Assembly (NCBI GenBank): GCA_045656345.1
Contig: JAZOQZ010000062.1
Location: forward strand, 50 to 64,049
Length of the DNA stretch: 64,000 bases
Direction of reading: 5' to 3'
DNA from: Clostridia bacterium
GTDB taxonomy: Bacteria; Bacillota; Clostridia; UMGS1840
The position numbers were made by a program, and so were the translations under genes. The notes beneath the pieces are model-generated. The model searched no databases, was not told the DNA's origin, and saw only the letters and a list, made by a program, of their open reading frames with translations. Of this stretch, positions 1,600 to 50,025 are shown piece after piece (within the stretch, counting starts at the first letter, position 1; the number at the start of each line of letters is the position of its first letter).

Positions 1600-1720
1600 G
1601 GCTTGAAAAATTGTGCATAATCCGTAAACCTCATCGCTCGGCGTACACTCGGTACGCCTTCAGATAACCCCTGCGGGTTCGGTTTCCGAATTCTGCATCA
1701 ATTTTTCTGCACCTAAATGA
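1600..1720 (+). repeat. Intergenic structured repeat, copy A (three-helix junction element)
   Basis: Shares blocks GGCTTGAAAAAT, ATCCGYRAAYYTCA, CTCGGCGTAC-loop-GTACGCC, TTTSCGAATTCT and TTTTCTGCACCT with 5406-5537; the core is also shared with 15030-15128. Self-complementary pairs: 1619-1630/1681-1692, 1640-1646/1652-1658, 1666-1670/1675-1679. Confidence 0.8.
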
Positions 1721-1730
1721 TAGGTTAATT

Positions 1731-1778
1731 AAAAAGACGAAATTCAGATTTTTTAGTCCTTTGAATTTCGTCTTTTTG
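1731..1778. terminator. Rho-independent terminator-like hairpin (bidirectional: A-run / stem / T-run)
   Basis: AGACGAAATTCA (1735-1746) pairs with TGAATTTCGTCT (1762-1773). It is flanked by AAAAA upstream and TTTTT downstream. Confidence 0.6.
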
Positions 1779-1962: not shown

Positions 1963-2682
1963 TTATGAGCAGGTCAGTTTTTTTCGTAAACCCTCAATGA
2001 TTTTTTTCTCAATTCTGGAGACCTGCACCTGTGAAATATTCAATTGCTTTGCTACTTCGTTTTGGGTTTTGTCTTCAAAATACCGCAGGTGAATCACAGT
2101 TTGTTCCCGTTCGGGAAGTTTTTGTAGAAGTTCGTGGAGTGCCATGTATTCCACAATTTTTTCTTCCTGATGTTCTTCGCCCGGGATTTTATCCATCAGC
2201 ATTACAGAACCGTCATCTCCCATAGGGGCATACAAAGATTCACACGTTGGCGTGTAAGAGAGAGCAGTTACCACATCATCCTCGGGGATTCCGGTTGCCT
2301 GGGAGATTTCGGTGATTTTGGGTTCGCGGAAAAATTGATTTTTGTAGTTTTCTAAGTAACGGTTGATTTTATAAGCATTTTCTTTGATATAGCGGGACAC
2401 TTTCAGTGCACCGTCATCTCTTAAAAACCGTTTGATTTCTCCCATAATCATCGGCACGGCATAGGTGGAAAATTGCACGTCATAAGAAAAATCAAATTTT
2501 TCAATGGCTTTTTTCAGTCCGATGCATCCAATCTGGATGGCATCGTCCGGCTCAATTCCACGGTTTAAAAATCGGAGCGCAATTTTTTTAACCAATCCCA
2601 TATTGAGAGAAAACAGTTGTTCCATTGCATTGGCGTCGCCTGTTTTTGCCAGTTTAATCAGTTCGTTGTTTTTGTCAAACAA
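1963..2682 (-). CDS. sigF: Sporulation sigma factor F (sigma-70 family, SigF/SpoIIAC)
   Basis: 239-aa sigma-70 region 2-4 protein (DDAIQIGCIGLKKAIEKFD, region 4 HTH QNEVAKQLNISQVQVSRIEKK). It lies directly downstream of spoIIAA-spoIIAB. TTG start is preceded by GAGGTG. Confidence 0.85.
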   Translation of the reverse strand: MFDKNNELIKLAKTGDANAMEQLFSLNMGLVKKIALRFLNRGIEPDDAIQIGCIGLKKAIEKFDFSYDVQFSTYAVPMIMGEIKRFLRDDGALKVSRYIKENAYKINRYLENYKNQFFREPKITEISQATGIPEDDVVTALSYTPTCESLYAPMGDDGSVMLMDKIPGEEHQEEKIVEYMALHELLQKLPEREQTVIHLRYFEDKTQNEVAKQLNISQVQVSRIEKKIIEGLRKKLTCS

Positions 2683-2711
2683 CTTATCACACCTCGTTTT
2701 CTTAAGCAGGG

Positions 2712-3149
2712 TTATGTATGGTTAGGGTGAAGCCTTTTTTTCATAAATACACGGGTTCCTTTTCCGGGTTCGGATTCCACTTGTAGGGAGTCCATAAATG
2801 ATTCCATCACGGTGAACCCCATTCCGGAGCGTTCTTCTTCGGTTTTTGTGGTGAAAAGAGGTTCTCTTGCTTTATCAATATCGGGAATTCCTTTTCCGGC
2901 ATCTGTTATTGTGATTTCCACGCTGTAATCAGAAAAAAGTCTCATTTCCAGCGTAATAATGCCGATTGTTTTATCATATCCGTGGATCACCGCATTGGAT
3001 ACCGCTTCCGATACTGCGGTTTTTACCTCCACAATTTCAGAAACTGTGGGGTCAGAGGGGGAGATAAAGGCTGCCGCCGTCACACGGGCAAAACTTTCGT
3101 TTTCCGATCGGGATAAAAACATGAGCCGCATTTCGTTTAGAATTTCCAT
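2712..3149 (-). CDS. spoIIAB: Anti-sigma F factor, serine protein kinase SpoIIAB
   Basis: HATPase_c-type protein with N-terminus ...SENESFARVTAAAFIS... and motifs SEAVSNAVIHGY and GMGFTVMESFMD. It sits between spoIIAA and sigF. ATG at 3149 is preferred over the TTG at 3158. Confidence 0.85.
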   Translation of the reverse strand: MEILNEMRLMFLSRSENESFARVTAAAFISPSDPTVSEIVEVKTAVSEAVSNAVIHGYDKTIGIITLEMRLFSDYSVEITITDAGKGIPDIDKAREPLFTTKTEEERSGMGFTVMESFMDSLQVESEPGKGTRVFMKKRLHPNHT

Positions 3150-3478
3150 AATTTGCAAAGCTCCTTTCCGTGGGAGAGAATAGTGACAATTTCACGCATA
3201 TTGGCAAGATTCAGCATCCTCAGATACCGTTCGTGGGTGGTGTATACATAAGTGGTGGTTCCGAATACCGATGCCAGTTTGTAGCCGTGAGCAATAAAAC
3301 TAATGCCGGAACTGTCCATAAAGGTGAGCCCCTCCAGATGAAAAATGATGCGTCGGTAATTTTTTTGGGAAAGCTTAAGGGTGAGACGTTCTCTTCCTGC
3401 GATGCAATTATGGTGATCCAATTCACCTCGCATGAGAATCATCAGGGTGTCGTTTTGTTCTTCAAAGAGTATTTCCAT
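3137..3478 (-). CDS. spoIIAA: Anti-sigma F factor antagonist SpoIIAA (STAS domain)
   Basis: 113-aa STAS protein with the phosphorylatable-serine motif FMDSSGI. It is the first gene of the spoIIA-type operon; RBS GAGGAA. Confidence 0.85.
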   Translation of the reverse strand: MEILFEEQNDTLMILMRGELDHHNCIAGRERLTLKLSQKNYRRIIFHLEGLTFMDSSGISFIAHGYKLASVFGTTTYVYTTHERYLRMLNLANMREIVTILSHGKELCKLWKF

Positions 3479-4877: not shown

Positions 4878-4946
4878 TATGATAAACATGTCAGTAAATC
4901 CTGTCAAATTTTGAAAGAAAAAATACAAAAAAATTCCCGAAATCTC

Positions 4947-4975
4947 TTGACAAATGCCATTGTTTGTGATATATT
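4947..4975 (+). promoter_or_regulatory. Sigma-A type promoter for tRNA-Leu/rpmB
   Basis: TTGACA (4947-4952), 17-nt spacer, TATATT (4970-4975). It lies about 28 nt upstream of the tRNA 5' end. Confidence 0.65.
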
Positions 4976-5002
4976 ATTACAAGTCAGCTTATGTGTTTAT
5001 AT

Positions 5003-5084
5003 GCCGGTGTGGCGGAATGGCAGACGCGCGCGACTCAAAATCGTGAGGGAAACCGTGGGGGTTCAAGTCCCTTCACCGGCACCA
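5003..5084 (+). tRNA. tRNA-Leu (anticodon CAA), long variable arm, encoded CCA
   Basis: Acceptor stem GCCGGTG/CACCGGC, anticodon loop CT-CAA-AA, long extra arm, T-arm GGGGGTTCAAGTCCCTTC, 3' ACCA. Confidence 0.9.
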
Positions 5085-5155: not shown

Positions 5156-5344
5156 ATGGCAAAATGCGAAATTTGCAGCAAAGCTACCACTTTCGGTATT
5201 CAGGTTTCTCACTCTCACAGAAGATCCAACAGAACCTGGAAACCCAATGTTAAAAAAGTAAGAGCAATTGTTGACGGTGCTCCGAAAAGAATTACCGTTT
5301 GCTCCAAATGCTTAAAATCCGGTAGAGTTATCAGAGCTATCTAA
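5156..5344 (+). CDS. rpmB: 50S ribosomal protein L28
   Basis: 62-aa MAKCEICSKATTFGIQVSHSHRRSNRTWKPNVKKV..., the typical L28 sequence. RBS GGAGGTG lies 9 nt upstream. Confidence 0.95.
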   Translation: MAKCEICSKATTFGIQVSHSHRRSNRTWKPNVKKVRAIVDGAPKRITVCSKCLKSGRVIRAI

Positions 5345-5360
5345 TTGAAAGCGCAAAAGA

Positions 5361-5391
5361 AAAAGACCGTTATGTAATAACGGTCTTTTTT
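5361..5391 (+). terminator. Rho-independent terminator after rpmB
   Basis: GACCGTTA (5365-5372) pairs with TAACGGTC (5378-5385), followed by TTTTTT. Confidence 0.75.
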
Positions 5392-5405
5392 GTATGCTTT
5401 TTTGC

Positions 5406-5537
5406 GGCTTGAAAAATGAGTTGGAATCCGTGAATTTCACCCTCGGCGTACACTCGGTACAGCCTCGGGCTCCGTCAAGGCGTTGCCTTGATTCAATTTC
5501 CGAATTCTATTCTCATTTTTCTGCACCTTATATGTGA
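5406..5537 (+). repeat. Intergenic structured repeat, copy B
   Basis: Aligns with 1600-1720 over its whole length. Helices: 5425-5436/5495-5506; GGCGTAC/GTACAGCC around loop ACTCG; TCAAGGC-GTT-GCCTTGA at 5475-5491. Confidence 0.8.
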
Positions 5538-5553
5538 TGCGTTGAAAAGTGTA

Positions 5554-5587
5554 AAAACGATGAATTGGCAAAAATTCATCGTTTTTT
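5554..5587. terminator. Bidirectional terminator (serves rlmH on the minus strand)
   Basis: AAAAACGATGAATT ... AATTCATCGTTTTTT. The stem is flanked by an A-run and a T-run and abuts the rlmH stop. Confidence 0.7.
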
Positions 5588-6062: not shown

Positions 6063-6853
6063 AAGAGCACCACCTCTCCCAGCATTCCCCGATGAGAAAC
6101 GGAGAGTTCTACATCTTTGTTTGCCTCAATTTTACCTTCTTTTAACACATCTTTTACGGTATGAAAGGCGAGTTCCGAAGTGTTTGCCTCGCCGCTTAAA
6201 TGGCCTAAAATGATTTTTTTCGTGCCGCCGTTTACTAAGTGAGTGGCAAATTTTCCTGCATTTTCATTGGATAAATGCCCCTCATCACCACGGATTCTTT
6301 GTTTTAAATGGAAGGGATAGGAGCAGTTTTCCAATGTGTTTAAATCGTGATTGGATTCTAAGAAAACCAGTTCTTTTCCTTTCACATCGGTAAATAAATT
6401 GTCTGCCAGATGACCAACATCCGTCAGGACGCTGATAGCTTTTTCATCGGCAAATAAATTATATCCCACCGTGTGACAGGCATCGTGAGGTACAGGGAAA
6501 GATTCAATCCGTAAGTCCAGCACCCCCACACTCTGATTACGGTCAATCTGAAAAATACGGTCAGAATAGTCACAGATTTTCGGGTACAATTCAATCAGCG
6601 TACCCTTGGTGCCACACACTTTCACGTTAAGATGCTTCATCATCATAGGGAGCGCTGAGGTGTGGTCAGTGTGAGCGTGGGTCAAAAAAACGGCATCCAG
6701 TTTGCCAATGTCCTCCCCGATGGAATCCAAAGACTCACGGATGCGCTTAAAACTGCACCCGCAGTCCACCAGGATGCGGGTGCCTTTATAGGATATAAAA
6801 ATAGAGTTACCGTTACTTCCTGAAAATAACGGACAAAATTTCAATTGATTCAT
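6059..6853 (-). CDS. MBL-fold metallo-hydrolase (YycJ/WalJ-like)
   Basis: Has the HAHTDH motif and the N-terminus FCPLFSGSNGNSIFISYKGTRILVDCG. Overlaps the rlmH start by 4 nt. Confidence 0.8.
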   Translation of the reverse strand: MNQLKFCPLFSGSNGNSIFISYKGTRILVDCGCSFKRIRESLDSIGEDIGKLDAVFLTHAHTDHTSALPMMMKHLNVKVCGTKGTLIELYPKICDYSDRIFQIDRNQSVGVLDLRIESFPVPHDACHTVGYNLFADEKAISVLTDVGHLADNLFTDVKGKELVFLESNHDLNTLENCSYPFHLKQRIRGDEGHLSNENAGKFATHLVNGGTKKIILGHLSGEANTSELAFHTVKDVLKEGKIEANKDVELSVSHRGMLGEVVLL

Positions 6854-8390: not shown

Positions 8391-9653
8391 GTGAAACGAT
8401 TAATCAGTTTGATATTATGCTTTGTATTAACCTGCTCTGTGGCACTGGCAGCAAATCCCATGCCGGAATTTGAAATTATGTCTCAGAGTGCTGTGGTGAT
8501 AGAAGCAGAAACAGGTCAGGTGCTTTATAACCGCGGAATGAATGACAAACAGTATCCTGCCAGCATTACCAAGGTAATGACGGCGCTGGTTGCATTGGAG
8601 CACGGAGATTTAAACGATGTGATCACCGTGAGTGATCACGCTGTTACTTCCGTGCAGGGAACCAGCCACATTGCTTTGTCTTCCGGGGAGGTGCTGACTT
8701 TGGAAGAAGCACTGTATGGGATGATGCTGGCATCAGCCAATGACTGTTCGGTTGCCATTGCGGAAAACGTGGGCGGCAGCGAAGAAGCTTTCGTGAAAAT
8801 GATGAACGAAAAGGCGCAGGAGTTAGGCGCAAAAAATACTAATTTTGTGAATCCGCACGGCCTTCACGATGTGAATCATTACACCACTGCTTATGATATG
8901 GCGTTAATTACCAGAGAAGCAATGAAACATCCCGATTTTGTGAGAATTGCAGGCGCAAGAACATACACCATGTCTGCCACAAACAAGCAGGGCGAAGAGC
9001 GCACACATTCCAATCAGAATCTGATGCTTCATCCGGGAAAATATTACTATGAGTATGCCCGATTCGGCAAAAACGGATTTACCACCCCTGCCCAGAATAC
9101 CATGGTTGTGGAAGCAAAACGGGGCAGCATGGAACTTATTTGTGTGGTAATGCGTTGTGCAGATGGTTATCAGAAATATGTGGAAGCGGCACAACTTTTG
9201 GATTTTTGTTACGATAATTTCTATAAAACCAAAATCGATAACGGACTTTTAAAGCCGCCTTCTGCCAAACTTTCCGGCACCTTTGGAACAGTTGGTCAGG
9301 TGGACTTTCAGTTAGACGGTGATGTTGCGGTCATGCTCCCCAACGGCGTTGGAACAGACAGTTTGGAATTTACTTATGATGTTAATCCCAGTTATCAAAG
9401 GGCTTCGGAATATAAAGCTCATGTGACAGTTTCTGCTGACGGCGAAGAGCTTTTCCGGATTCCGATGAAGGGGACCGGCAGAGAAACAATCACCTTCTAT
9501 AATGTTTTAAAAACAATTTTCTGGATTGTTCTGGCAGTGGTGCTGTTTTTCGTGTCTGTTGTGGTTTACTTTATTGTGGATGCAGAACGCAAGAAAAAAC
9601 AGCGCCGGAAAGCAAAATTCCGTCGGGCACTCCGTATCAAAAAAGATATTTAA
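8391..9653 (+). CDS. D-alanyl-D-alanine carboxypeptidase (S11 family, DacB/DacF-like) with C-terminal TM anchor and basic tail
   Basis: Signal peptide; SxxK motif SITKVMT, SxN motif SAND, and a KNG box. C-terminal TM segment followed by ERKKKQRRKAKFRRALRIKK. GTG start after GGAGAA. Confidence 0.85.
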   Translation: MKRLISLILCFVLTCSVALAANPMPEFEIMSQSAVVIEAETGQVLYNRGMNDKQYPASITKVMTALVALEHGDLNDVITVSDHAVTSVQGTSHIALSSGEVLTLEEALYGMMLASANDCSVAIAENVGGSEEAFVKMMNEKAQELGAKNTNFVNPHGLHDVNHYTTAYDMALITREAMKHPDFVRIAGARTYTMSATNKQGEERTHSNQNLMLHPGKYYYEYARFGKNGFTTPAQNTMVVEAKRGSMELICVVMRCADGYQKYVEAAQLLDFCYDNFYKTKIDNGLLKPPSAKLSGTFGTVGQVDFQLDGDVAVMLPNGVGTDSLEFTYDVNPSYQRASEYKAHVTVSADGEELFRIPMKGTGRETITFYNVLKTIFWIVLAVVLFFVSVVVYFIVDAERKKKQRRKAKFRRALRIKKDI

Positions 9654-13975: not shown

Positions 13976-14923
13976 ATGGGTACTTCCAAGAAAAAAGTTA
14001 CAATTGTCGGAGCAGGTTTTGTAGGTGCTTCCATTGCTTATACCATCGCTGCAAGAAACCTTGCGCACGAAATGGTTTTAATTGATGTAAATAAAGAAAA
14101 AGCATACGGTGAAGCACTGGATATTTCTCACGCTTGTCCCGTATTCGGTTCTATGAAAATCACCGCTGGTGATTACGCTGACGTAAAAGACAGTGACGTT
14201 ATCATCATCACTGCAGGTGTAAACAGAAAACCCGGCGAAACCAGAATGGACTTAGCTTGCAAAAACGTTGCAATTATGAAAAGCATCGTTGGCGATATCA
14301 TGAAACATTACAACGGCGGTATTTTTGTAATCGTTTCCAACCCTGTTGACGTGCTGACCACTTTAGTTCAGAAATGGACCGGTCTGCCCGCAGGCAAAGT
14401 TATCGGTTCCGGTACTTATTTAGATACCATCCGTCTGCAGCAGAAACTGTATGATTTATTTGATATGAACGTTAAAAACATTCATGCAATGATGATTGGT
14501 GAACACGGCGAAACTCAGTTCCCCTACTGGAGCCATGCTACCATCGCAGGTGAATCTATCTTAAACTTAAACACCATTCACGGCCATCCTTTAACTGACG
14601 AAGAAAAAGCTCAGATTAAAGAAGAAGTGAAATTAGGCGGTGCTGCTATCATCAAAAACAAAGGTGCTACCTATTTTGGCGTTGCAAGTTCTGTAAGTGA
14701 TATTACCGATGCTATCTTAAACGGTAAAGACAGAGTGCTTCCCGTAAGCATTAATAAAGAAGAACTCTATGGCTTCACTAATGTTGCTGTAAGTATGCCC
14801 AGAATCGTAAGCAGTGAAGGTGTTGAACTGGATATTCCCGTAGTTCTTTCTCCCGAAGAAGAAGAACTGATGAAGAAATCCGTGGAAAATGTATATAACA
14901 TCACCAAAGAATTCATTGACTAA
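13976..14923 (+). CDS. ldh: L-lactate dehydrogenase
   Basis: KVTIVGAGFVGAS Rossmann motif, ITAGVNRKPGETRMDL, catalytic MIGEHGETQ; 315 aa. Confidence 0.93.
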   Translation: MGTSKKKVTIVGAGFVGASIAYTIAARNLAHEMVLIDVNKEKAYGEALDISHACPVFGSMKITAGDYADVKDSDVIIITAGVNRKPGETRMDLACKNVAIMKSIVGDIMKHYNGGIFVIVSNPVDVLTTLVQKWTGLPAGKVIGSGTYLDTIRLQQKLYDLFDMNVKNIHAMMIGEHGETQFPYWSHATIAGESILNLNTIHGHPLTDEEKAQIKEEVKLGGAAIIKNKGATYFGVASSVSDITDAILNGKDRVLPVSINKEELYGFTNVAVSMPRIVSSEGVELDIPVVLSPEEEELMKKSVENVYNITKEFID

Positions 14924-14940
14924 GACTCGATAAAAGAACT

Positions 14941-15001
14941 TAGACCGCAAAAGGCATAGGATTAATTCTATGCCTTTTTGTTTTATAAGGTGAAAATTGT
15001 T
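14941..15001 (+). repeat. 61-bp direct repeat, left copy (contains the ldh terminator hairpin)
   Basis: Identical to 15139-15199 except one position (A at 14964 vs G at 15162). Contains AAAAGGCATAGGATTAATTCTATGCCTTTTT. Confidence 0.9.
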
Positions 15002-15029
15002 TGCAACAATTTTGATCAGAATGCCTTTT

Positions 15030-15128
15030 GCTATCCGCAAACCTCACCTCTCGGCGTACCGATGTACGCCTTCGGGTAACCCTTCGGTTTGGTTTGCGAA
15101 TTCTAAGTCCTTTTCTCATCGTCTGAAA
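15030..15128 (+). repeat. Intergenic structured repeat, copy C (core)
   Basis: ATCCGCAAACCTCACCTCTCGGCGTAC-CGAT-GTACGCCTTCGGGTAACC-CTTC-GGTTTGGTTTGCGAATTCT aligns with the cores of copies A and B. Closing helix: 15032-15043 with 15091-15102. Confidence 0.75.
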
Positions 15129-15138
15129 ATTAAAAACA

Positions 15139-15199
15139 TAGACCGCAAAAGGCATAGGATTGATTCTATGCCTTTTTGTTTTATAAGGTGAAAATTGTT
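15139..15199 (+). repeat. 61-bp direct repeat, right copy (second terminator hairpin)
   Basis: See 14941-15001. The repeat period is 198 bp. Confidence 0.9.
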
Positions 15200-15210: not shown

Positions 15211-15246
15211 CAAAAAAAGCTGAATCAATTTGATTCAGCTTTTTTT
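15211..15246. terminator. Bidirectional terminator overlapping the stop of the 77-aa ORF
   Basis: AAAAAAAGCTGAATCA-ATT-TGATTCAGCTTTTTTT. Confidence 0.7.
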
Positions 15247-15478: not shown

Positions 15479-15856
15479 TTAATCCAATTGGTTGTGCTTT
15501 TCCAAAAAATCCTTGATTTTTTCGAAACTTTCCTGACTTAAATCGTGTTCAATTTTGCAACTGTCTTCAAAGGCGTTTTCCTTGGAAACACCCAACGCCA
15601 TCAGTGCCTTTGCAATCACGTGATGCCGTTCATACATATTGTCGGCAACCAGCATTCCTTTTTCGGTTAGAGCGATATTGCCAAGCTCATCCACAGTTAA
15701 AAAACCTTCCTCGCGCAAGGTTTTCATTGCAACGGATACGCTGGGTTTGGACACATTTAAATGATGTGCCACGTCAATACTTCTGACATGTCCCAATTCT
15801 TTTTTCAAAATTAACACAGCTTCTAAATAGTTTTCGCCGGATTCTTTTAAGCTCAT
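15479..15856 (-). CDS. DtxR/MntR-family metal-dependent transcriptional regulator
   Basis: GENYLEAVLIL...RSIDVAHHLNVSKPSVSVAMKTLREEGFL winged-HTH plus metal-binding/dimerisation helices. ATG at 15856 follows GGAGG. Confidence 0.85.
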   Translation of the reverse strand: MSLKESGENYLEAVLILKKELGHVRSIDVAHHLNVSKPSVSVAMKTLREEGFLTVDELGNIALTEKGMLVADNMYERHHVIAKALMALGVSKENAFEDSCKIEHDLSQESFEKIKDFLEKHNQLD

Positions 15857-15896
15857 CTGATAATACCTCCGATTCTTTGGGGGATGTTTGGTAATA

Positions 15897-16229
15897 TTAA
15901 AAAACAAGTTGAACGAGTATCATATAAAATACCGTTCCGCCGCCTACGCTTAACAAAATATTTCGCTTCCAAAGATGCATAGCGGTGATTGCCAACAGGG
16001 CAATTGCTTCGGGGAGTCCGTGAGAGTATTGCAGGATGGAAACATCCTTCAGGCAATACACCAAAAGCATTCCGATGGTAGCGAAGGGGAGCATTTTTCC
16101 TAAATATCGAATAAACTCAGGAGTTTTTCTGTGAGGGGGGAACAGTAAAAATGGCAACGCCCTGGTTAAAAACGTGGCAACTGCAGAAACCAAAATGATA
16201 AGCAGTGCCTGATGGATTGGAAGAGTCAT
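15897..16229 (-). CDS. azlD: Branched-chain amino acid exporter small subunit AzlD
   Basis: 110-aa 4-TM protein (FLTRALPFLLF motif). Its start overlaps the azlC stop (TAATG). Confidence 0.8.
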   Translation of the reverse strand: MTLPIHQALLIILVSAVATFLTRALPFLLFPPHRKTPEFIRYLGKMLPFATIGMLLVYCLKDVSILQYSHGLPEAIALLAITAMHLWKRNILLSVGGGTVFYMILVQLVF

Positions 16230-42239: not shown

Positions 42240-42363
42240 TCACGGATTTTTACGGTTCGTCAATTGTTTTCACAAAAATTACATATAAAATATGGAAAAT
42301 CATCCGTGTTTTTTCTTGTTTTTTATAAAATTTTAAAAAATTAAAAAAAATGCAAAAAAAGTA

Positions 42364-42392
42364 TTGACAAATGCAATTTCTTTTGATATAAT
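42364..42392 (+). promoter_or_regulatory. Sigma-A type promoter for tRNA-Val
   Basis: TTGACA, 17-nt spacer, TATAAT (consensus on both hexamers). Confidence 0.75.
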
Positions 42393-42424
42393 ACCCCTTG
42401 CTTGATGAGAGCAACCGAAAATTT

Positions 42425-42500
42425 GGGAGCATAGCTCAGCTGGGAGAGCATCTGCCTTACAAGCAGAGGGTCATAGGTTCGAGCCCTATTGTTCCCACCA
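42425..42500 (+). tRNA. tRNA-Val (anticodon UAC), encoded CCA
   Basis: GGGAGCATAGCTCAGCTGGGAGAGC D-arm, anticodon loop CT-TAC-AA, T-arm GGTTCGAGCCC, 3' CCCACCA. Confidence 0.9.
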
Positions 42501-42649: not shown

Positions 42650-45600
42650 ATGAAAAAGAAGATTTTCGCGTTATTCACAGCGATTGTTCTTTGTGTTACG
42701 AGCCTCGGCGTGATGAGTGCATCTGCGGCAACCGTGGCAAGCGGAAATTGCAGCAGTACTGTAAGCTGGACGCTGGATTCCGAAGGAACCCTGACAGTCA
42801 GCGGTACCGGTGCAATGCCTGATTATGAGGCAACCACCTTTCCCTGGTACAGCCAGAGAAACAGCATTACAAAGGTGGTTATCGGAAATGGAGTGACCAC
42901 AATCGGTGCTTATGCATTTCGTTCCTGCAAAAGTATTACTGAGGTTTCAGTTGCAAACAGCGTGCTTTCCATTGGGGAATATGCCTTTGCCAACGATGAA
43001 GGACTGACCAAGGTCACCTTGGGCAATAAGCTACAATCCATTGGTAATAATGCGTTTTATAACTGTAAAACGCTGGCAAACGTTACCATTCCCGACAGTG
43101 TTATCACGTTGGGGAGCGATGTATTTAGTACCTGTCCTGCTCTGACTACCGTTGTGATTGGAAATGGTGTGGAAGTCATTCCGGAAAATGCGTTCCGCGG
43201 CTGCTCTAAGCTGACCAATCTGACCATTGGCTGCGGCGTGTTTGAGATTGCTGCAAATGCATTCTATAACTGCTCCGCTTTGAAAAACGTTACCTTTATA
43301 GGGACCGAATCCCAGTGGAGTAAAATTACCATTGCTGAAAGCGGAAACGATGCTTTGAAAAATGTATCCGTGCAGGCGACTGCTCCGGATAACGGATGTG
43401 GAGCCAATGCTACCTGGAGCTTTGCTGACGGAACCTTAACCATCAGCGGTTCGGGTGCGATGGCGAATTATAATGCCTACAATTGTCCTTGGTTGAATTT
43501 GAAAAGCGATATTACAAAGATTGTGATTGCAGACGGCATTACCAGTGTGGGCTCTTATGCCTTTGGTGGTTGCAATAACTTGGGTGAAATTACGTTGCCG
43601 GACAGTGTGACCAGAATTGGGGAGCGTTCTTTCAATAATTGCGACAGCCTGACGGAGTTTACTGTTTCGGATTCTGTGACCTATATTGGCGATTATGCTT
43701 TTGCAAACTGTGATAAACTTGCATCTGTGGATTTAGGTTACGGAGTGGTAACCATAGATACATACGCATTTTACAATTGTGATTCTTTAGAAACTGTTAA
43801 GATACCCAACAGCGTGACAACTATGGGGTCATTTGCTTTTAGTGCCAGTGGAGCCTTAAAGGAAGTAATGCTTGGAAGCGGACTCACAACAATCAGCAGT
43901 TCTGCTTTTCGTAGTTGTTCCGGGTTGGAAAAGGTGACCATTAGCGGTACTGTAGCTTCCGTTGGCGAATCCGCTTTTCAGGGATGTTCTGCGTTGAAGG
44001 ATGTGTATTTCAGAGGAGATGCACAAAAATGGGCGGCTGTGTCCATTGGTTCCAATAACACAGCTTTAACAAGTGCAACCATCCATTATGCTACAGCGGA
44101 TATCTGTGGAGAAAATCTGACCTGGAATCTGGACGAAAACGGCACCTTAACCGTTACCGGTACCGGCGAAATGTATGACTTTACTGCTTACAATATGCCT
44201 TGGTACAGTCAGCGAAACAACGTGAAAAAGGTTGTGATTGCAGACGGTGTGACCAATGTAGGAACCTGGGCGTTCTATAATCATTCCAACTTAGAAGAGA
44301 TTTCTTTCGGCGACACTGTCACCAATATCGGTCTGCGAGCGTTTGCTTCCTGCAAAAATCTGGTAAGCATCAATTTAGAAGGCAACATCACCACTGTGGG
44401 TGACTATGCTTTTGCGAGCTGTGAAGCGGCAAAGGAAATTGTGTTCGGAGAAAATGTAACAACCGTTGGAAATGATGCTTTTTATAATTGCAAAGGCTTA
44501 ACGGAATTGACTCTGCCTGCACACATCACCACTTGGGGAGAACGTGCATTTACCTCCTGTAGCAATCTTACCAAGGTTACTCTGGAAGATGGCATTGATA
44601 CGATTGGAACGTCTATGTTCCACGGCTGCAGCAAGCTGGAAACCATCACCATTCCCGCAACCGTAACCGTAATCGGTAATGCAGCATTTCGTGATTGTAA
44701 TGCCCTCAGGGATGTTTATTATCCGGGAACCGAGGAACAATGGAACGCAATTACCGTTGGAACTCAGAACACTGCATTGGAGAATGCCACCGTGCATTTT
44801 GCATCCGAAGAAGGAATCTGCGGAGATAATTTGATTTGGTATCTGGATACTGACGGAGTTTTAACCATCAGCGGTATCGGTGCTATGTATGATTACAACG
44901 AAGAAGCAACCCCCTGGGCAGAATTTTCGGACAGCATCATTTCTGTTGTGATTTCCGAAGGGGTTACCTCCATCGGTGATGGTACATTCTCTGCTTTGGG
45001 AAATTTAGAAGCGATTACCATTCCTGCGAGTGTAACAACAATCGGAGAAGCAGTATTCTTCGGTTGTGATAAATTGGCAGACATTACTGTAGCAGAAGAA
45101 AATTCTGCATACTGCGCTGTTGATAATGTATTATTTAACAAAGACCAAACTATTCTGATTCAGTATGCAAGCGGAAAAGAAGACACCGCCTACACCATTC
45201 CCGACGGAGTTGAAACCGTTGAAAAGGGTGCATTTGCAGCTACTGTTCTTGAAAGCTTGACGGTGCCCAACAGCGTTACCACCATTAAGGAAAATGCCTT
45301 TGCTTCCTGCACTGCATTAACCAATATTTTCTATGACGGCTTCCAATCTGATTGGGAACAGATGATTTCTGAATATGCCGGAAATGAAGCACTTGCCAAT
45401 GCTACTGCACAGTTCTCCTGCTATGAAGGAACCTGCGGCGAAAATGTGACCTGGCAGTTGGATACCCTGGGAACCTTAACCATCAGCGGTACCGGTGATA
45501 TGGCAGATTTCGAATCTCGTAAGGCTCCATGGTATAGCTTAAGAAACAATATTCAAAAGGTAATTGTGGAAGATGGAATCACTTCCATCGGAACCTGGGC

Positions 45601-46882
45601 ATTCTACGAATGTGCCAATGTGACCGAGGTTGTTCTCGGAAATGATTTAACCGAAATCGGCGACCGTGCCTTTGGTGCTTGTAAGGGAATCAGTGAAATC
45701 ACACTTCCCGACAGCGTAATTGTAATTGGCGAATTTGCCTTTGCCAACTGCGAAGGTCTGACCGGTCTGACCTTTAACGAAACCGTGGAAACCATTGGTG
45801 CTTCCGCATTTTATAACTGTGTCGGTTTAACCAAACTGACCATTCCTTCCAGTGTGACCACCCTGGGCGAAAAAGCGTTCCAGAATTGTACTGCGTTAAC
45901 CGATGTGGTGATTGGTAACGGTATTACCGCAATTGCTCCCTATACCTTCCACAACGGCTTCAATCTGGTGAATGTGACAATTCCCGAAACCGTAACCTCC
46001 ATCGGTGCTTCTGCATTTGACCTTTGCACCAAGCTGAAAACCATTTATTACTACGGTACCGAAACCGATTGGTCCAAGATGGAAATTGGTGAGAAAAACG
46101 ACGGTATTTTAAATGCTTCTATGTATTACTTCTCCGGTATTTGCGGAGATAATATGACCTGGAGCGTAACCTCTGACGGAGTTCTTACTTTGGGCGGTAC
46201 CGGTGATATGTATGATTATACTGCATATACGATGCCCTGGTATGACCATATTGAAAATATCCGTGAAGTTATCATAGGCGACGGTATCACCGGCCTTGGC
46301 AATTCTGCATTCCAGGGTGCTTTGAATCTGACAGACATCACCTGGAGCGCAAGCTTAAAAACCATTGGGGAACGTGCTTTCTCCGGCTGCGCAAGCTTAG
46401 ATGCTGTGGTTCTTCCCGAAACTGTTACCGAAATCAGCGACCACGCATTTGCATATTGTTCTTCTATGACTGCAATTACCTTCTCTAAAAATGTTGCAAC
46501 TATCGGTCAGTACGCATTTTATCAGGATTCCAACCTGAAGGATGTGTATTATTACGGAGAACAGGAAAACTGGGATGCGATTGCTGTTGGTAATTACAAC
46601 GATTATTTCAACAGTGCAACCGTTCATTATGTGACCGTCATCAAAACCGATGTTTCCGAAGACGGAAAAGCATTCACCGTTAACCTTCTCAATGTGGAAG
46701 AAGGGCAGACCGTGATTTTAGCTCTGTATCAGGGCAACAAGCTGGTAGAGGTGCAGGATGAACCCTATTCGGGAGCTTCTGTTCCCTTTACCACCACCGA
46801 AGAGTATTCCAATGCCAAGGTGATGGTTTGGGATTCCATATCCGCTTTAACCACAAAATATCAGGTGGAAATTGTAAAATAA
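42650..46882 (+). CDS. Secreted BspA-type leucine-rich-repeat (LRR_5) protein, six tandem modules, 1410 aa
   Basis: Signal peptide (…VMSASA/ATV). There are six 205-238-aa modules. Each opens with C-G/S-x-N-x-T/S/I-W-x-L/F/V-x(2,3)-G-T/V-L-T-x-S/T/G-G-x-G-x-M, is followed by ~23-aa LRR units (I/VxxIGxxAFxxCxxLxxVxIPxSV), and closes with YYxGTxxxWxxIxI. The unique C-terminal domain is ~85 aa. RBS AGGAGAAA. Confidence 0.85.
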   Translation: MKKKIFALFTAIVLCVTSLGVMSASAATVASGNCSSTVSWTLDSEGTLTVSGTGAMPDYEATTFPWYSQRNSITKVVIGNGVTTIGAYAFRSCKSITEVSVANSVLSIGEYAFANDEGLTKVTLGNKLQSIGNNAFYNCKTLANVTIPDSVITLGSDVFSTCPALTTVVIGNGVEVIPENAFRGCSKLTNLTIGCGVFEIAANAFYNCSALKNVTFIGTESQWSKITIAESGNDALKNVSVQATAPDNGCGANATWSFADGTLTISGSGAMANYNAYNCPWLNLKSDITKIVIADGITSVGSYAFGGCNNLGEITLPDSVTRIGERSFNNCDSLTEFTVSDSVTYIGDYAFANCDKLASVDLGYGVVTIDTYAFYNCDSLETVKIPNSVTTMGSFAFSASGALKEVMLGSGLTTISSSAFRSCSGLEKVTISGTVASVGESAFQGCSALKDVYFRGDAQKWAAVSIGSNNTALTSATIHYATADICGENLTWNLDENGTLTVTGTGEMYDFTAYNMPWYSQRNNVKKVVIADGVTNVGTWAFYNHSNLEEISFGDTVTNIGLRAFASCKNLVSINLEGNITTVGDYAFASCEAAKEIVFGENVTTVGNDAFYNCKGLTELTLPAHITTWGERAFTSCSNLTKVTLEDGIDTIGTSMFHGCSKLETITIPATVTVIGNAAFRDCNALRDVYYPGTEEQWNAITVGTQNTALENATVHFASEEGICGDNLIWYLDTDGVLTISGIGAMYDYNEEATPWAEFSDSIISVVISEGVTSIGDGTFSALGNLEAITIPASVTTIGEAVFFGCDKLADITVAEENSAYCAVDNVLFNKDQTILIQYASGKEDTAYTIPDGVETVEKGAFAATVLESLTVPNSVTTIKENAFASCTALTNIFYDGFQSDWEQMISEYAGNEALANATAQFSCYEGTCGENVTWQLDTLGTLTISGTGDMADFESRKAPWYSLRNNIQKVIVEDGITSIGTWAFYECANVTEVVLGNDLTEIGDRAFGACKGISEITLPDSVIVIGEFAFANCEGLTGLTFNETVETIGASAFYNCVGLTKLTIPSSVTTLGEKAFQNCTALTDVVIGNGITAIAPYTFHNGFNLVNVTIPETVTSIGASAFDLCTKLKTIYYYGTETDWSKMEIGEKNDGILNASMYYFSGICGDNMTWSVTSDGVLTLGGTGDMYDYTAYTMPWYDHIENIREVIIGDGITGLGNSAFQGALNLTDITWSASLKTIGERAFSGCASLDAVVLPETVTEISDHAFAYCSSMTAITFSKNVATIGQYAFYQDSNLKDVYYYGEQENWDAIAVGNYNDYFNSATVHYVTVIKTDVSEDGKAFTVNLLNVEEGQTVILALYQGNKLVEVQDEPYSGASVPFTTTEEYSNAKVMVWDSISALTTKYQVEIVK

Positions 46883-49948: not shown

Positions 49949-50025
49949 GGGCCTTTAGCTCAGTTGGTTAGAGCTCCCGGCTCATAACCGGTCGGTCCTG
50001 GGTTCGAGTCCCCGAAGGCCCACCA
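49949..50025 (+). tRNA. tRNA with CAU anticodon (elongator Met or lysidine-modified Ile2; Ile2-like by sequence feel), encoded CCA
   Basis: GGGCCTTTAGCTCAGTTGGTTAGAGC..., anticodon loop CT-CAT-AA, T-arm GGGTTCGAGTCCC, acceptor GGGCCTT/AAGGCCC, ACCA. Confidence 0.85.

Follow-up and report, generated by a model that had tools for sequence, protein, structure and literature searches.

The structured small interspersed repeats of bacteria (BOX, RUP, SPRITE and bcr1 among them) make up a functional class rather than a homologous family, whose members are shorter than 200 bp, multi-copy, intergenic, lineage-restricted and variable between strains, lie downstream of genes and display a stable predicted RNA fold (PMC3049150, PMC3184786). 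In BOX of S. pneumoniae (boxA-boxB(n)-boxC), the outer modules pair into a long stem and the middle one can be absent or multiplied with the fold undisturbed; BOX is transcribed with neighbouring genes and over-represented between convergent genes, and compatible changes keep its predicted RNA structure (PMC3049150). SPRITE is an intergenic repeat of <200 bp with a terminator-like predicted RNA fold, strongly enriched near gene 3' ends and between convergent genes, which has neither a clear target duplication nor a known mobilising enzyme and was suggested to have been co-opted as a functional terminator (PMC3049150). In the Bacillus cereus group, bcr1 (Okstad 2004; Klevan 2007; Kristoffersen 2011, summarised in PMC3184786) is a strain-variable, transcribed repeat of ~155 bp in which compensatory changes keep a branched cruciform-like RNA structure. 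Here we analyse a 64-kb window (64,000 nucleotides of contig JAZOQZ010000062.1, assembly GCA_045656345.1, of a Clostridia bacterium) in which a Y-shaped hairpin occurs three times, directly or closely behind genes, as part of a unit with its own predicted terminator. We argue that this unit is probably a lineage-specific, small non-autonomous interspersed repeat of the BOX/SPRITE sort, which would act as a cassette of 3' untranslated region (UTR) plus terminator and some copies of which would have been co-opted. Positions are numbered on the window, and L-numbers (L001-L040) designate loci fetched from related genomes; transcription, termination and any stabilising role are, throughout, deduced from sequence.

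All three copies lie on the plus strand and can be aligned over their whole length. As stated in the initial annotation of this DNA, they occupy gaps behind the plus-strand genes leuS, rpmB and ldh, whose stop codons are at 1590-1592, 5342-5344 and 14921-14923. Nowhere else in the 64 kb do exact matches to CTCGGCGTAC and (T)TnCGAATTCT co-occur. With a covariance model derived from 14 members of the family, the copies obtain 134, 107 and 101 bits (E 1e-23 to 1e-32), and no fourth one is found in the window. Their minimum free energy (MFE) folds (z -4.4 to -4.9) contain the helices that had been named, i.e. a closing helix (1619-1630/1681-1692), GGCGTAC/GTACGCC and a variable third hairpin (1666-1679), and the copies are predicted to share one fold, a long imperfect stem ending in a three-way junction. 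The three-helix core originally proposed stands, but two features around it had been overlooked. An outer stem (GAAAAAT.../...ATTTTTC) prolongs the closing helix in copies A and B, giving a 114-122-nt imperfect hairpin with the three-way junction at its tip. Copy C is without the 5' arm of this stem; a module resembling a terminator and a small AT hairpin stand before it instead, and a direct repeat of 68 nt flanks it on both sides. The parts of the hairpins are as follows.

1600-1713, plus strand: copy A (behind leuS), an A-type Y-shaped imperfect hairpin, recognised from sequence, folds, the covariance model (134.5 bits), covariation and an orthologous copy in L031
1605-1617 with 1696-1709, plus strand: outer stem of copy A
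1619-1630 with 1681-1692, plus strand: P1 of copy A
1633-1635 with 1663-1665, plus strand: P2a of copy A, followed by a 4x4 internal loop
1640-1646 with 1652-1658, plus strand: P2b of copy A (GGCGTAC/GTACGCC)
1666-1670 with 1675-1679, plus strand: P3 of copy A, a variable hairpin
5406-5527, plus strand: copy B (behind rpmB), a Y-shaped hairpin of B type whose P2 is bulged and whose P3 is longer (TCAAGGC GTT GCCTTGA), from the covariance model (107 bits) and folds
15033-15122, plus strand: copy C (behind ldh), a C-type core, from the covariance model (101 bits) and folds
15033-15043 with 15091-15101, plus strand: P1 of copy C
15053-15059 with 15064-15070, plus strand: P2 of copy C, with a short P3 and the 3' tail TTTTCTCATCG besides

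Compensatory changes keep the three-helix junction. In an alignment of 27 distinct copies, the proposed structure lets 82.6% of cells pair, while column shuffles give 74.3%; both partners have changed in 23 of the 40 pairs. Covariation scores 0.258, compared with 0.145 in shuffles (0/500 reach the observed value) and ~0.06 in slid registers. Since the alignment was fitted to the covariance model, pair counts are biased towards the structure, but the shape holds nevertheless because divergent copies folded independently give the same one. Thus, CCGTAAACC/GGTTTCCG of P1 is found as CAATGAATC/GATTTCTTA, CAGGTCAAGC/GCTTTCCCGG or CCAAAAACAG/CTGTTTTTG in different copies and GGCGTAC/GTACGCC of P2 as GCCGTAC/GTACGGC or GACGTAT/ATACGCC, and P3 ranges from absent to a hairpin of up to 30 nt or two hairpins. 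Mismatch positions in P1 tend to persist, with a C.A in 20 of the 27 copies. A perfect-palindrome variant of the P2 arm, GTTCACCACTCGCCGTAC AGCGC GTACGGCGAGTGGTGAAC, was seen directly after a full copy at L014:1916-1973; its 5' strand fits the family consensus, its 3' strand is the exact complement of the 5' strand, and it may be an ancestral or a derived simple-hairpin form.

Each copy is followed, as the initial annotation had noticed, by a hairpin with a T-run (1731-1777, 5553-5587 and 15147-15176). Rather than a separate terminator next door, this is a predicted terminator belonging to the repeated unit. All three of these 3' modules have the GC-containing stem-loop and T-run of an intrinsic terminator: 5553-5586 and 15147-15176 were found by a terminator scan, and 1731-1777, with its loop of 17 nt, was missed by the consensus scan and found by folding. 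The modules and the segments between them are listed here.

1714-1730, plus strand: spacer of copy A, fast-evolving (~8/17 positions changed relative to the L031 orthologue)
1731-1777, plus strand: T_A terminator module, AAAAAGACGAAATTC - 17-nt loop - GAATTTCGTCTTTTT, found by folding; its stem is also present behind A-type copies elsewhere
5404-5587, plus strand: whole insert at the rpmB-rlmH site (copy B, spacer and terminator), by comparison with the empty L031 site gtatgctttttt/acttatgatagc
5553-5586 plus T-run, to 5587, plus strand: terminator of the copy-B unit, found by terminator scan and fold, within the inserted segment
14934-15001, plus strand: first copy of the T_C module, a terminator hairpin (14949-14978) and its T-run, with TAAGGTGAAAATTGTT next as the 5' half of P0, a small AT hairpin
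15002-15032, plus strand: C-type linker, comprising the P0 loop and 3' half AACAATTTT, then GATCAGAATGCCTTTTGCT; conserved among C-type copies
15132-15199, plus strand: second copy of the T_C module, a terminator hairpin (15147-15176) with T-run and the first half of P0

In the gap that separates leuS from the convergent sigF-like gene, T_A is the sole terminator-like hairpin found; having an A-run before it and a T-run after it, it could terminate in both directions. The same stem, GACGAAATTC...GAATTTCGTC, trails A-type copies in the window/L031, L001, L005, L007 and L011, 96-109 nt past the core motif, with variable loops and with A- and T-runs on either side; it stands behind A-type cores at five loci unrelated to leuS, in addition to the leuS site and its L031 orthologue. 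At leuS, in a relative with 94% identity, an ordinary unrelated terminator replaces the element and T_A, the sequence farther downstream being common to both. That the repeat provides the only leuS terminator in the window follows from the presence, in this relative, of an unrelated terminator at the same place. Behind rpmB, the gene's own terminator (5359-5391) lies upstream of copy B, and the insert holds the hairpin, a 25-nt spacer and the terminator 5553-5587. Around copy C, the two halves of the 68-nt direct repeat (14934-15001 and 15132-15199) are 96% identical. Each is a T_C module, consisting of a terminator (GCAAAAGGCATRG...CYATGCCTTTT) followed by P0, which covaries among C-type copies. 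C-type cores are always preceded by T_C, at 64-73 nt, and often have a second T_C behind them, which explains the direct repeat. T_C is itself a dispersed repeat (ATAGACCGCAAAAGGCATAGG..CTATGCCTTTTTGTTTTATAAGGTGAAAATTGTT, a terminator hairpin and the start of the small AT hairpin) that occurs with or without the Y-shaped core; besides the two window sites, it was found at L016:2150-2230, at L031:9335-9410 and 9534-9615, and in L001, L004, L017 and L018. Behind ppi, for example, T_C and P0 are alone in L016 and are arranged as T_C-P0-core-T_C-P0 in L031, so that in L016 the predicted terminator can seemingly serve a gene by itself. Right after the second T_C of the window there is a strong symmetric terminator, AAAAAAAGCTGAATCAATTTGATTCAGCTTTTTTT (15212-15246). 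It probably serves the mntR/dtxR-like gene on the minus strand (15479-15907), which is convergent, and three terminator hairpins thus follow one another behind ldh.

Copy A starts 7 nt after the leuS stop; several other copies start 0-7 nt past a stop codon, and others a few bases past the T-run of a resident terminator. The nearest upstream open reading frame is co-oriented with the element for 15/16 copies and the downstream one for 8/16 (Fisher p 0.015); counted by independent intergenic regions, with L030 and L031 added, orientation is sense to the upstream gene in 16 of 17 (binomial p 3e-4). The downstream gene is convergent in 8/16, all three window copies included. As indicated by a positive GC skew, the plus strand is the probable leading strand across the window, which alone cannot separate a replication-strand bias from a transcription bias, but the fact that upstream and downstream neighbours differ in this respect points to transcription as the source. 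No common functional theme was apparent among the upstream genes (leuS, rpmB, ldh, rplL, and genes for rubrerythrin, ABC transporters, surface proteins, a fucosidase and trmD). Promoter scans agree with the earlier view that no sigma-70-type promoter precedes the element: there is none before A or B, and at C there are loose minus-strand matches only. The conserved TTGACA-like and TAGAAT-like hexamers of C-type copies were considered as a standard promoter and rejected, as they are only 11-12 nt apart.

Comparison with close relatives reveals considerable turnover. In the metagenome-assembled genome (MAG) from which L031 was fetched, LeuS is 95% identical and the genes are arranged as in the window (leuS, sigF, spoIIAB, spoIIAA, dut, ppi, rpmB, rlmH). 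In L031, the rpmB-rlmH gap is 57 nt long and presents an empty site with a clean junction, exactly at which the window has 184 extra bases (5404-5587). In strains with an identical L28 protein, the rpmB junction harbours a B-type copy, a very different variant (L022, L024) or two tandem copies (L017, L018), and L025 has a partial deletion with the 3' tail and spacer remaining. With a copy behind rplL (L014), in the very MAG that has the empty rpmB site, copy B shares 94% identity over the hairpin; with the L022 copy, which occupies its own site between flanks of 72-80% identity, it shares only 53%. Moreover, copy B and its 94% twin share the hairpin and neither the spacer nor the terminator. 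Such comparisons show copies that have been gained, lost, tandemly duplicated, truncated and swapped between loci. The swapping of hairpins at a fixed site and the long T_C direct repeats suggest a large role for recombination between copies. No conserved insertion target motif was found in the flanks of the copies. Three independent Logan assemblies with 98% Ldh identity (L037, L038 and L039) all end 53-56 nt past the ldh stop, inside T_C, which is consistent with repeats breaking short-read assemblies.

When one genome per prokaryotic species was scanned for the exact pattern, 15 loci were returned; 12 of them are true members according to the covariance model and three (L003, L009 and L015), unrecognised by it, are chance pattern matches. 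The 12 come from eight MAGs of uncultured gut Clostridia that are Acutalibacteraceae- or Oscillospiraceae-like, from ruminant, deer and human-type samples; genomes with the family include JAZQKB01, JAZNNT01, JAZQUU01 and JAFUIN01. With the further copies found beside these seeds in the fetched loci using the covariance model and hidden Markov models of half-elements, the family amounts to ~30 full copies, plus partial ones, in at least nine MAG species of uncultured gut Oscillospirales. There are tandem arrays (three copies in L013, and two each in L006, L017 and L018), and truncated remnants of either half are common in the fetched loci. A scan of JGI metagenomes returned four matches, none recognised by the model and hence all due to chance, and no match to the element was found in phage, plasmid and IMG/VR collections. 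The element also proved to be unfamiliar to Rfam, as anticipated. The whole window at the gathering threshold of Rfam 15 gave three tRNAs only, and scans of all three copies at permissive E-values gave weak terminator- or hairpin-driven matches only, none covering the core. Literature searches retrieved no specific description of an equivalent element in Clostridia. Concerning the host, look-ups of the exact Ldh and SpoIIAA proteins of the window retrieved no record, and comparisons were accordingly made with relatives; the closest LeuS proteins (94-95% identical) are from Clostridia MAGs, the nearest named organism being Ruthenibacterium at 72%, and the operon of a sigF-like sigma factor, spoIIAB (anti-sigma kinase) and spoIIAA (STAS anti-anti-sigma) at 1963-3478 (minus strand, convergent with leuS) indicates a spore-forming member of the Oscillospirales. 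Six copies in 119 kb not selected for the element (the window and L030-L032) correspond to ~1 per 20 kb, which, extrapolated to an assumed few-Mb genome, would give roughly a hundred copies in all; no copies were found in 45 kb from two relatives with 79% LeuS identity. On this sampling, the family is a lineage-specific and previously uncatalogued one of uncultured gut Oscillospirales (class Clostridia).

Where copies are orthologous, they are well conserved. In the comparison of the window with L031, 10/114 positions of the A-type hairpin (8.8%) have changed, against 131/321 (41%) for four-fold sites of leuS, sigF and rlmH (p 2e-11), and T_A differs at 2/47 positions, against ~8/17 in the 17-nt spacer. 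The 10 changes in the hairpin comprise one compensatory pair (U-A to G-C), three that create new G.U pairs on the plus strand, five in an internal loop or an existing mismatch and one making a C.A at the edge of the outer stem. Over a longer distance (88% Ldh identity, 41% four-fold divergence), L040 has a family member at the same place downstream of ldh, which keeps the Y fold though the sequences of P1, P2 and P3 are all rewritten. Either purifying selection on the folded plus strand or concerted evolution with other copies could account for this conservation.

How does this element compare with the systems described so far? It has the traits of the structured small-interspersed-repeat class and, by analogy, can be placed in that broader class, but it would belong to none of the named families, and homology to BOX, RUP, SPRITE or bcr1 is unlikely as the host lineages differ. 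In BOX, the optional middle module parallels the variable or absent P3, but BOX, unlike the element here, has terminal inverted repeats and target duplications, occurs in both orientations and is without a terminator module. SPRITE is likewise a small multi-copy intergenic repeat near gene 3' ends, terminator-like and with no clear target duplication, but is essentially one long stem with a U-rich tract, present in ~30 copies per pneumococcal genome, whereas in gut Oscillospirales the terminator is a 3' module only, in a unit dominated by the 115-nt branched hairpin. The likeness to bcr1 lies in a Firmicutes repeat that is patchy among close strains and in which compensatory changes keep a branched fold; bcr1 is, however, flanked by 5-bp direct repeats in the manner of MITEs (miniature inverted-repeat transposable elements), in contrast to the absence of a consistent duplication, the strict sense orientation and the terminator seen here. 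Correia elements (Neisseria) and ERIC (enterobacteria) are co-transcribed imperfect palindromes of 100-150 nt which form RNase-cleaved hairpins or affect the stability of the upstream mRNA in an orientation-dependent manner (PMC3049150). As long imperfect palindromic RNA hairpins transcribed with genes they are a precedent, albeit a looser one than BOX, SPRITE and bcr1, because they have clear terminal inverted repeats (and TA duplications in the case of Correia), occur in both orientations and reside in proteobacterial hosts. REP/BIME and REPIN, the latter mobilised by RAYT, are palindromes of 3' UTRs and convergent genes, clustered and implicated in mRNA stabilisation and termination (PMC3184786, PMC3733652). 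The extragenic 3'-UTR or convergent position and the conserved structure are shared, but a REP is by definition a GC-rich palindrome of 20-40 nt tagged with GTAG or CGTC at one end (PMC3733652), often in inverted dimers, and the element was rejected as a REP/REPIN since its ~115-nt branched core of 45-50% GC has no conserved GTAG/CGTC at its ends and none of the other features. No RAYT gene was seen in the fetched loci of ~8-22 kb.

Three further classes were tried and rejected. For a classical MITE, presence/absence polymorphism (the rpmB site) was indeed found, as were nearly identical copies in separate places (copy B and its counterpart in L014, 94% identical). However, the combination of marks by which the initial annotation would have recognised an ordinary MITE (both orientations, terminal inverted repeats, target-site duplications) is missing: orientation is nearly always sense to the upstream gene (16/17, p 3e-4), and no consistent duplication is seen. 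The ends, GGCTTGAAAAAT and ATTTTTCNNCACC, are imperfectly complementary, lie within the stem whose inner part covaries and are incomplete in C-type copies, which have no 5' arm. No transposase flanked by the element's termini occurs in the fetched loci of ~8-22 kb. Without a consistent duplication and with its near-uniform sense orientation, the element is MITE-like in behaviour but cannot be classed as a classical MITE. For an integron attC, the core sites RYYYAAC ... GTTRRRY are absent on inspection from the ends of copies A-C and most other copies, and the upstream genes are housekeeping ones in conserved synteny (leuS, rpmB, ldh, rplL) rather than mobile cassettes. A riboswitch or attenuator is at odds with a downstream gene that is convergent in half of the cases (8/16) and with the lack of a conserved alternative pairing in A- and B-type units. 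Inspection of the internal loops revealed no hammerhead-type cores, K-turn or loop-E motifs. By analogy, the element resembles known bacterial interspersed repeats rather than a new type of RNA gene.

A second family of repeats, none of which is in the window, was noticed in the related genomes. These are GTAG-headed REP-like hairpins (TTTGTAGGGGAGGGGCTTGCTCCTCCC and variants), typically 15-25 nt past a terminator, at L005:4103, L011:4829/5448, L017:440/1430, L018:134/1124, L019:120, L024:61, L002:4880, L001:3252 and L004:4792/4874, the one in L002 interrupting a Y-shaped copy. A 2013 survey describes GTAG-tagged REPs in other phyla, Firmicutes being unmentioned (PMC3733652).

The scenario that we favour for the Y-shaped element, and regard as probable, is that of a BOX/SPRITE-like interspersed repeat used as a 3'-end cassette. 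The unit would be ~185-200 nt long. It would start with a Y-shaped hairpin of 115-120 nt, built from the outer stem, P1, a P2 that contains the conserved internal loop and a P3 that varies or is missing; a short spacer and a Rho-independent terminator of its own would usually come next, with subfamilies carrying distinct terminator modules (T_A behind A-type copies, T_C before and behind C-type ones). Copies survive almost only in sense behind a gene, and would therefore be transcribed as the tail of the upstream mRNA when standing directly behind it. The unit's terminator would end this transcript, as the sole terminator in the case of leuS, and the hairpin, in the 3' UTR, would most plausibly be a barrier to 3' exonucleases or a processing site for a double-strand RNase. 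Some copies might then have been co-opted as the 3' end of a host gene and kept by selection, and new ones might arise via a transposase, or via recombination or gene conversion between copies and between repeated terminator modules. This agrees with one of the options initially offered, a selfish repeat or 3'-UTR element, and disfavours another, a discrete small RNA (sRNA) gene at a single locus, given the dozens of copies, the presence/absence polymorphism, the tandem arrays and the remnants.

Several observations weigh against this scenario. The flanks of ~20 copies display no consistent target-site duplication, and the only repeat across the clean empty/filled junction is a T-run, as any terminator would supply. 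In the same ~8-22-kb loci, no transposase, insertion sequence sharing the terminal repeats or other mobilising gene was found, and the long T_C direct repeats round C-type cores fit no standard transposition mechanism. The strand that folds is not fixed by wobble pairs (54 cells with G.U only to 37 with A.C only, p 0.09), the conserved C.A of P1 points away from folding of the plus strand, and the minus strand has a slightly lower folding energy in all three window copies. Finally, orthologues may have diverged little because copies convert one another and not because a host function is selected; the spacer, which has diverged, speaks against a recent replacement of the whole unit, but not against conversion confined to homologous blocks. 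Nevertheless, the context (a sense position behind genes, a plus-strand terminator with T-run and the G.U substitutions between orthologues) favours a plus-strand RNA.

Among the alternatives, the one that survives best, although we consider it unlikely, is a multi-copy family of functional non-coding RNAs (a protein-binding RNA, a trans-acting sRNA derived from 3' UTRs or a ribozyme), in which dispersal would be secondary. The unit would then yield a stable RNA, with the junction, the internal loop and the P1 mismatches as its functional site. The strong covariation in P1, P2 and P3, the unpaired blocks and mismatch positions kept across divergent variants, and a layout typical of sRNAs (structured domain, spacer, intrinsic terminator) are all in line with this idea. 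So are orthologous copies that, spacer excepted, are far more conserved than synonymous sites, the persistence of a member behind ldh, with compensatory changes, at 88% protein identity, and the terminators that insulate C-type copies on either side, as would suit a transcription unit of their own. However, neither strand has a conserved promoter with proper spacing, P3 varies from missing to long or double, and conservation does not extend to the loops. The behaviour is also that of a repeat (high copy number, variation between close strains, swapping of variants at one site, common remnants), the upstream genes share no functional theme and close relatives do without the family altogether.

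Less probable still is a role of the fold as single-stranded DNA (ssDNA), as the substrate of a strand-specific recombinase or transposase (an HUH/Y1 enzyme as for REP/REPIN or IS200/IS605, or a tyrosine recombinase as for attC). Covariation, which cannot tell RNA from ssDNA, would then reflect selection for mobilisation, and the wobble counts (54 vs 37, p 0.09), the better folding of the minus strand in all three copies, their common location on the probable leading strand and the existence of the perfect-palindrome P2 arm in L014 would be readily accommodated. In addition, the GTAG-headed REP-like hairpins that adjoin units in related genomes may hint at a RAYT-type enzyme. Yet, no tetra- or pentanucleotide target is conserved 5' of the copies, the core has no GTAG or CGTC tag and no attC core sites (RYYYAAC, GTTRRRY), and its ~115 nt with a branched tip are unlike REPs of 20-40 nt (PMC3733652). 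Orientation, moreover, follows the upstream gene and not the strand alone (downstream genes are convergent in half of the cases), and the unit carries a transcription terminator, which would have no role in an ssDNA mechanism.

More radical proposals are, in our opinion, very improbable. One is that the cassette is a self-propagating 3'-end element defined by its transcript, akin to a short interspersed nuclear element (SINE), or, in a milder version, that the Y domain represents a new class of protein-binding or catalytic 3'-UTR RNA riding on mobile terminators. If the former were true, bacteria would have a SINE-like retroposon from which genes also acquire new terminators. The specific retroposon mechanism, in which a processed transcript that begins at the hairpin base and ends with the terminator's U-run is copied by a host reverse transcriptase into T-runs behind genes, is more doubtful again. 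The rpmB-site insert does end exactly at the terminator T-run and sits right after a target T-run, several other copies start at most 5 nt from a T-run, sense orientation behind genes would follow automatically and 3'-only remnants exist. However, many copies abut stop codons with no T-run, 5'-only remnants exist too (and hence no clear 5'-truncation bias), the direct repeats of 68-85 nt round C-type cores run past the T-run, copy B and its 94% twin differ in spacer and terminator, and no reverse transcriptase is linked to the family. Equally doubtful is a cis-acting conditional terminator of the riboswitch/attenuator type, in which the junction would sense a signal and control read-through into downstream genes: a three-way-junction domain with an intrinsic terminator 15-35 nt further on, and copies between co-directional genes in L010, L004 and L014, would suit it, but the downstream gene is convergent in 8/16 cases (including all window copies), A- and B-type units have no conserved anti-terminator pairing with the 5' arm of the terminator, P3 is dispensable, the flanking genes are functionally unrelated and the rpmB site is empty in a close relative.

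Other repetitive sequences were encountered along the way. A third recurrent intergenic hairpin, CCTTCCCCTTGAGGGGAAGG(G/T)GG..., often followed by GTTTTGCA.AGCAAAACTCGGA(T/G)G, occurs in several related MAGs, e.g. in L001 (downstream of the copy at 6679-6803), at ~6150-6200 in L004 and at ~2790-2860 in L016. In the window itself, two 59-nt blocks that are 76% identical (4918-4976 and 42335-42393) contain a near-consensus promoter (TTGACA ... TATATT/TATAAT) and lie just upstream of tRNA genes (5003-5081 and 42425-42497, the third tRNA being at 49949-50022). A long coding region made of degenerate repeats of ~615-715 nt (~42700-46500) is probably a large repetitive cell-surface protein of the LRR_5 sort; a protein of this leucine-rich-repeat Pfam family is encoded at one end of the relative L032.

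The coupling of a branched hairpin to a portable predicted terminator, with signs of domestication, is unusual, although nothing so far lies outside known biology. The finding adds an uncatalogued repeat family to a large branch of uncultured gut Clostridia in which intergenic repeats have hardly been described. Repeats are seen here supplying, duplicating and replacing the predicted terminators of genes, to the point that the leuS terminator is the repeat's own. In practical terms, a covariance model of the family would flag recurrent contig breaks in MAGs and false calls of 'novel sRNAs'. Finally, with a covarying branched hairpin, a strict sense orientation and the conservation of orthologous copies, the family would be a good test case for distinguishing tolerated from domesticated modules at the 3' ends of mRNAs.

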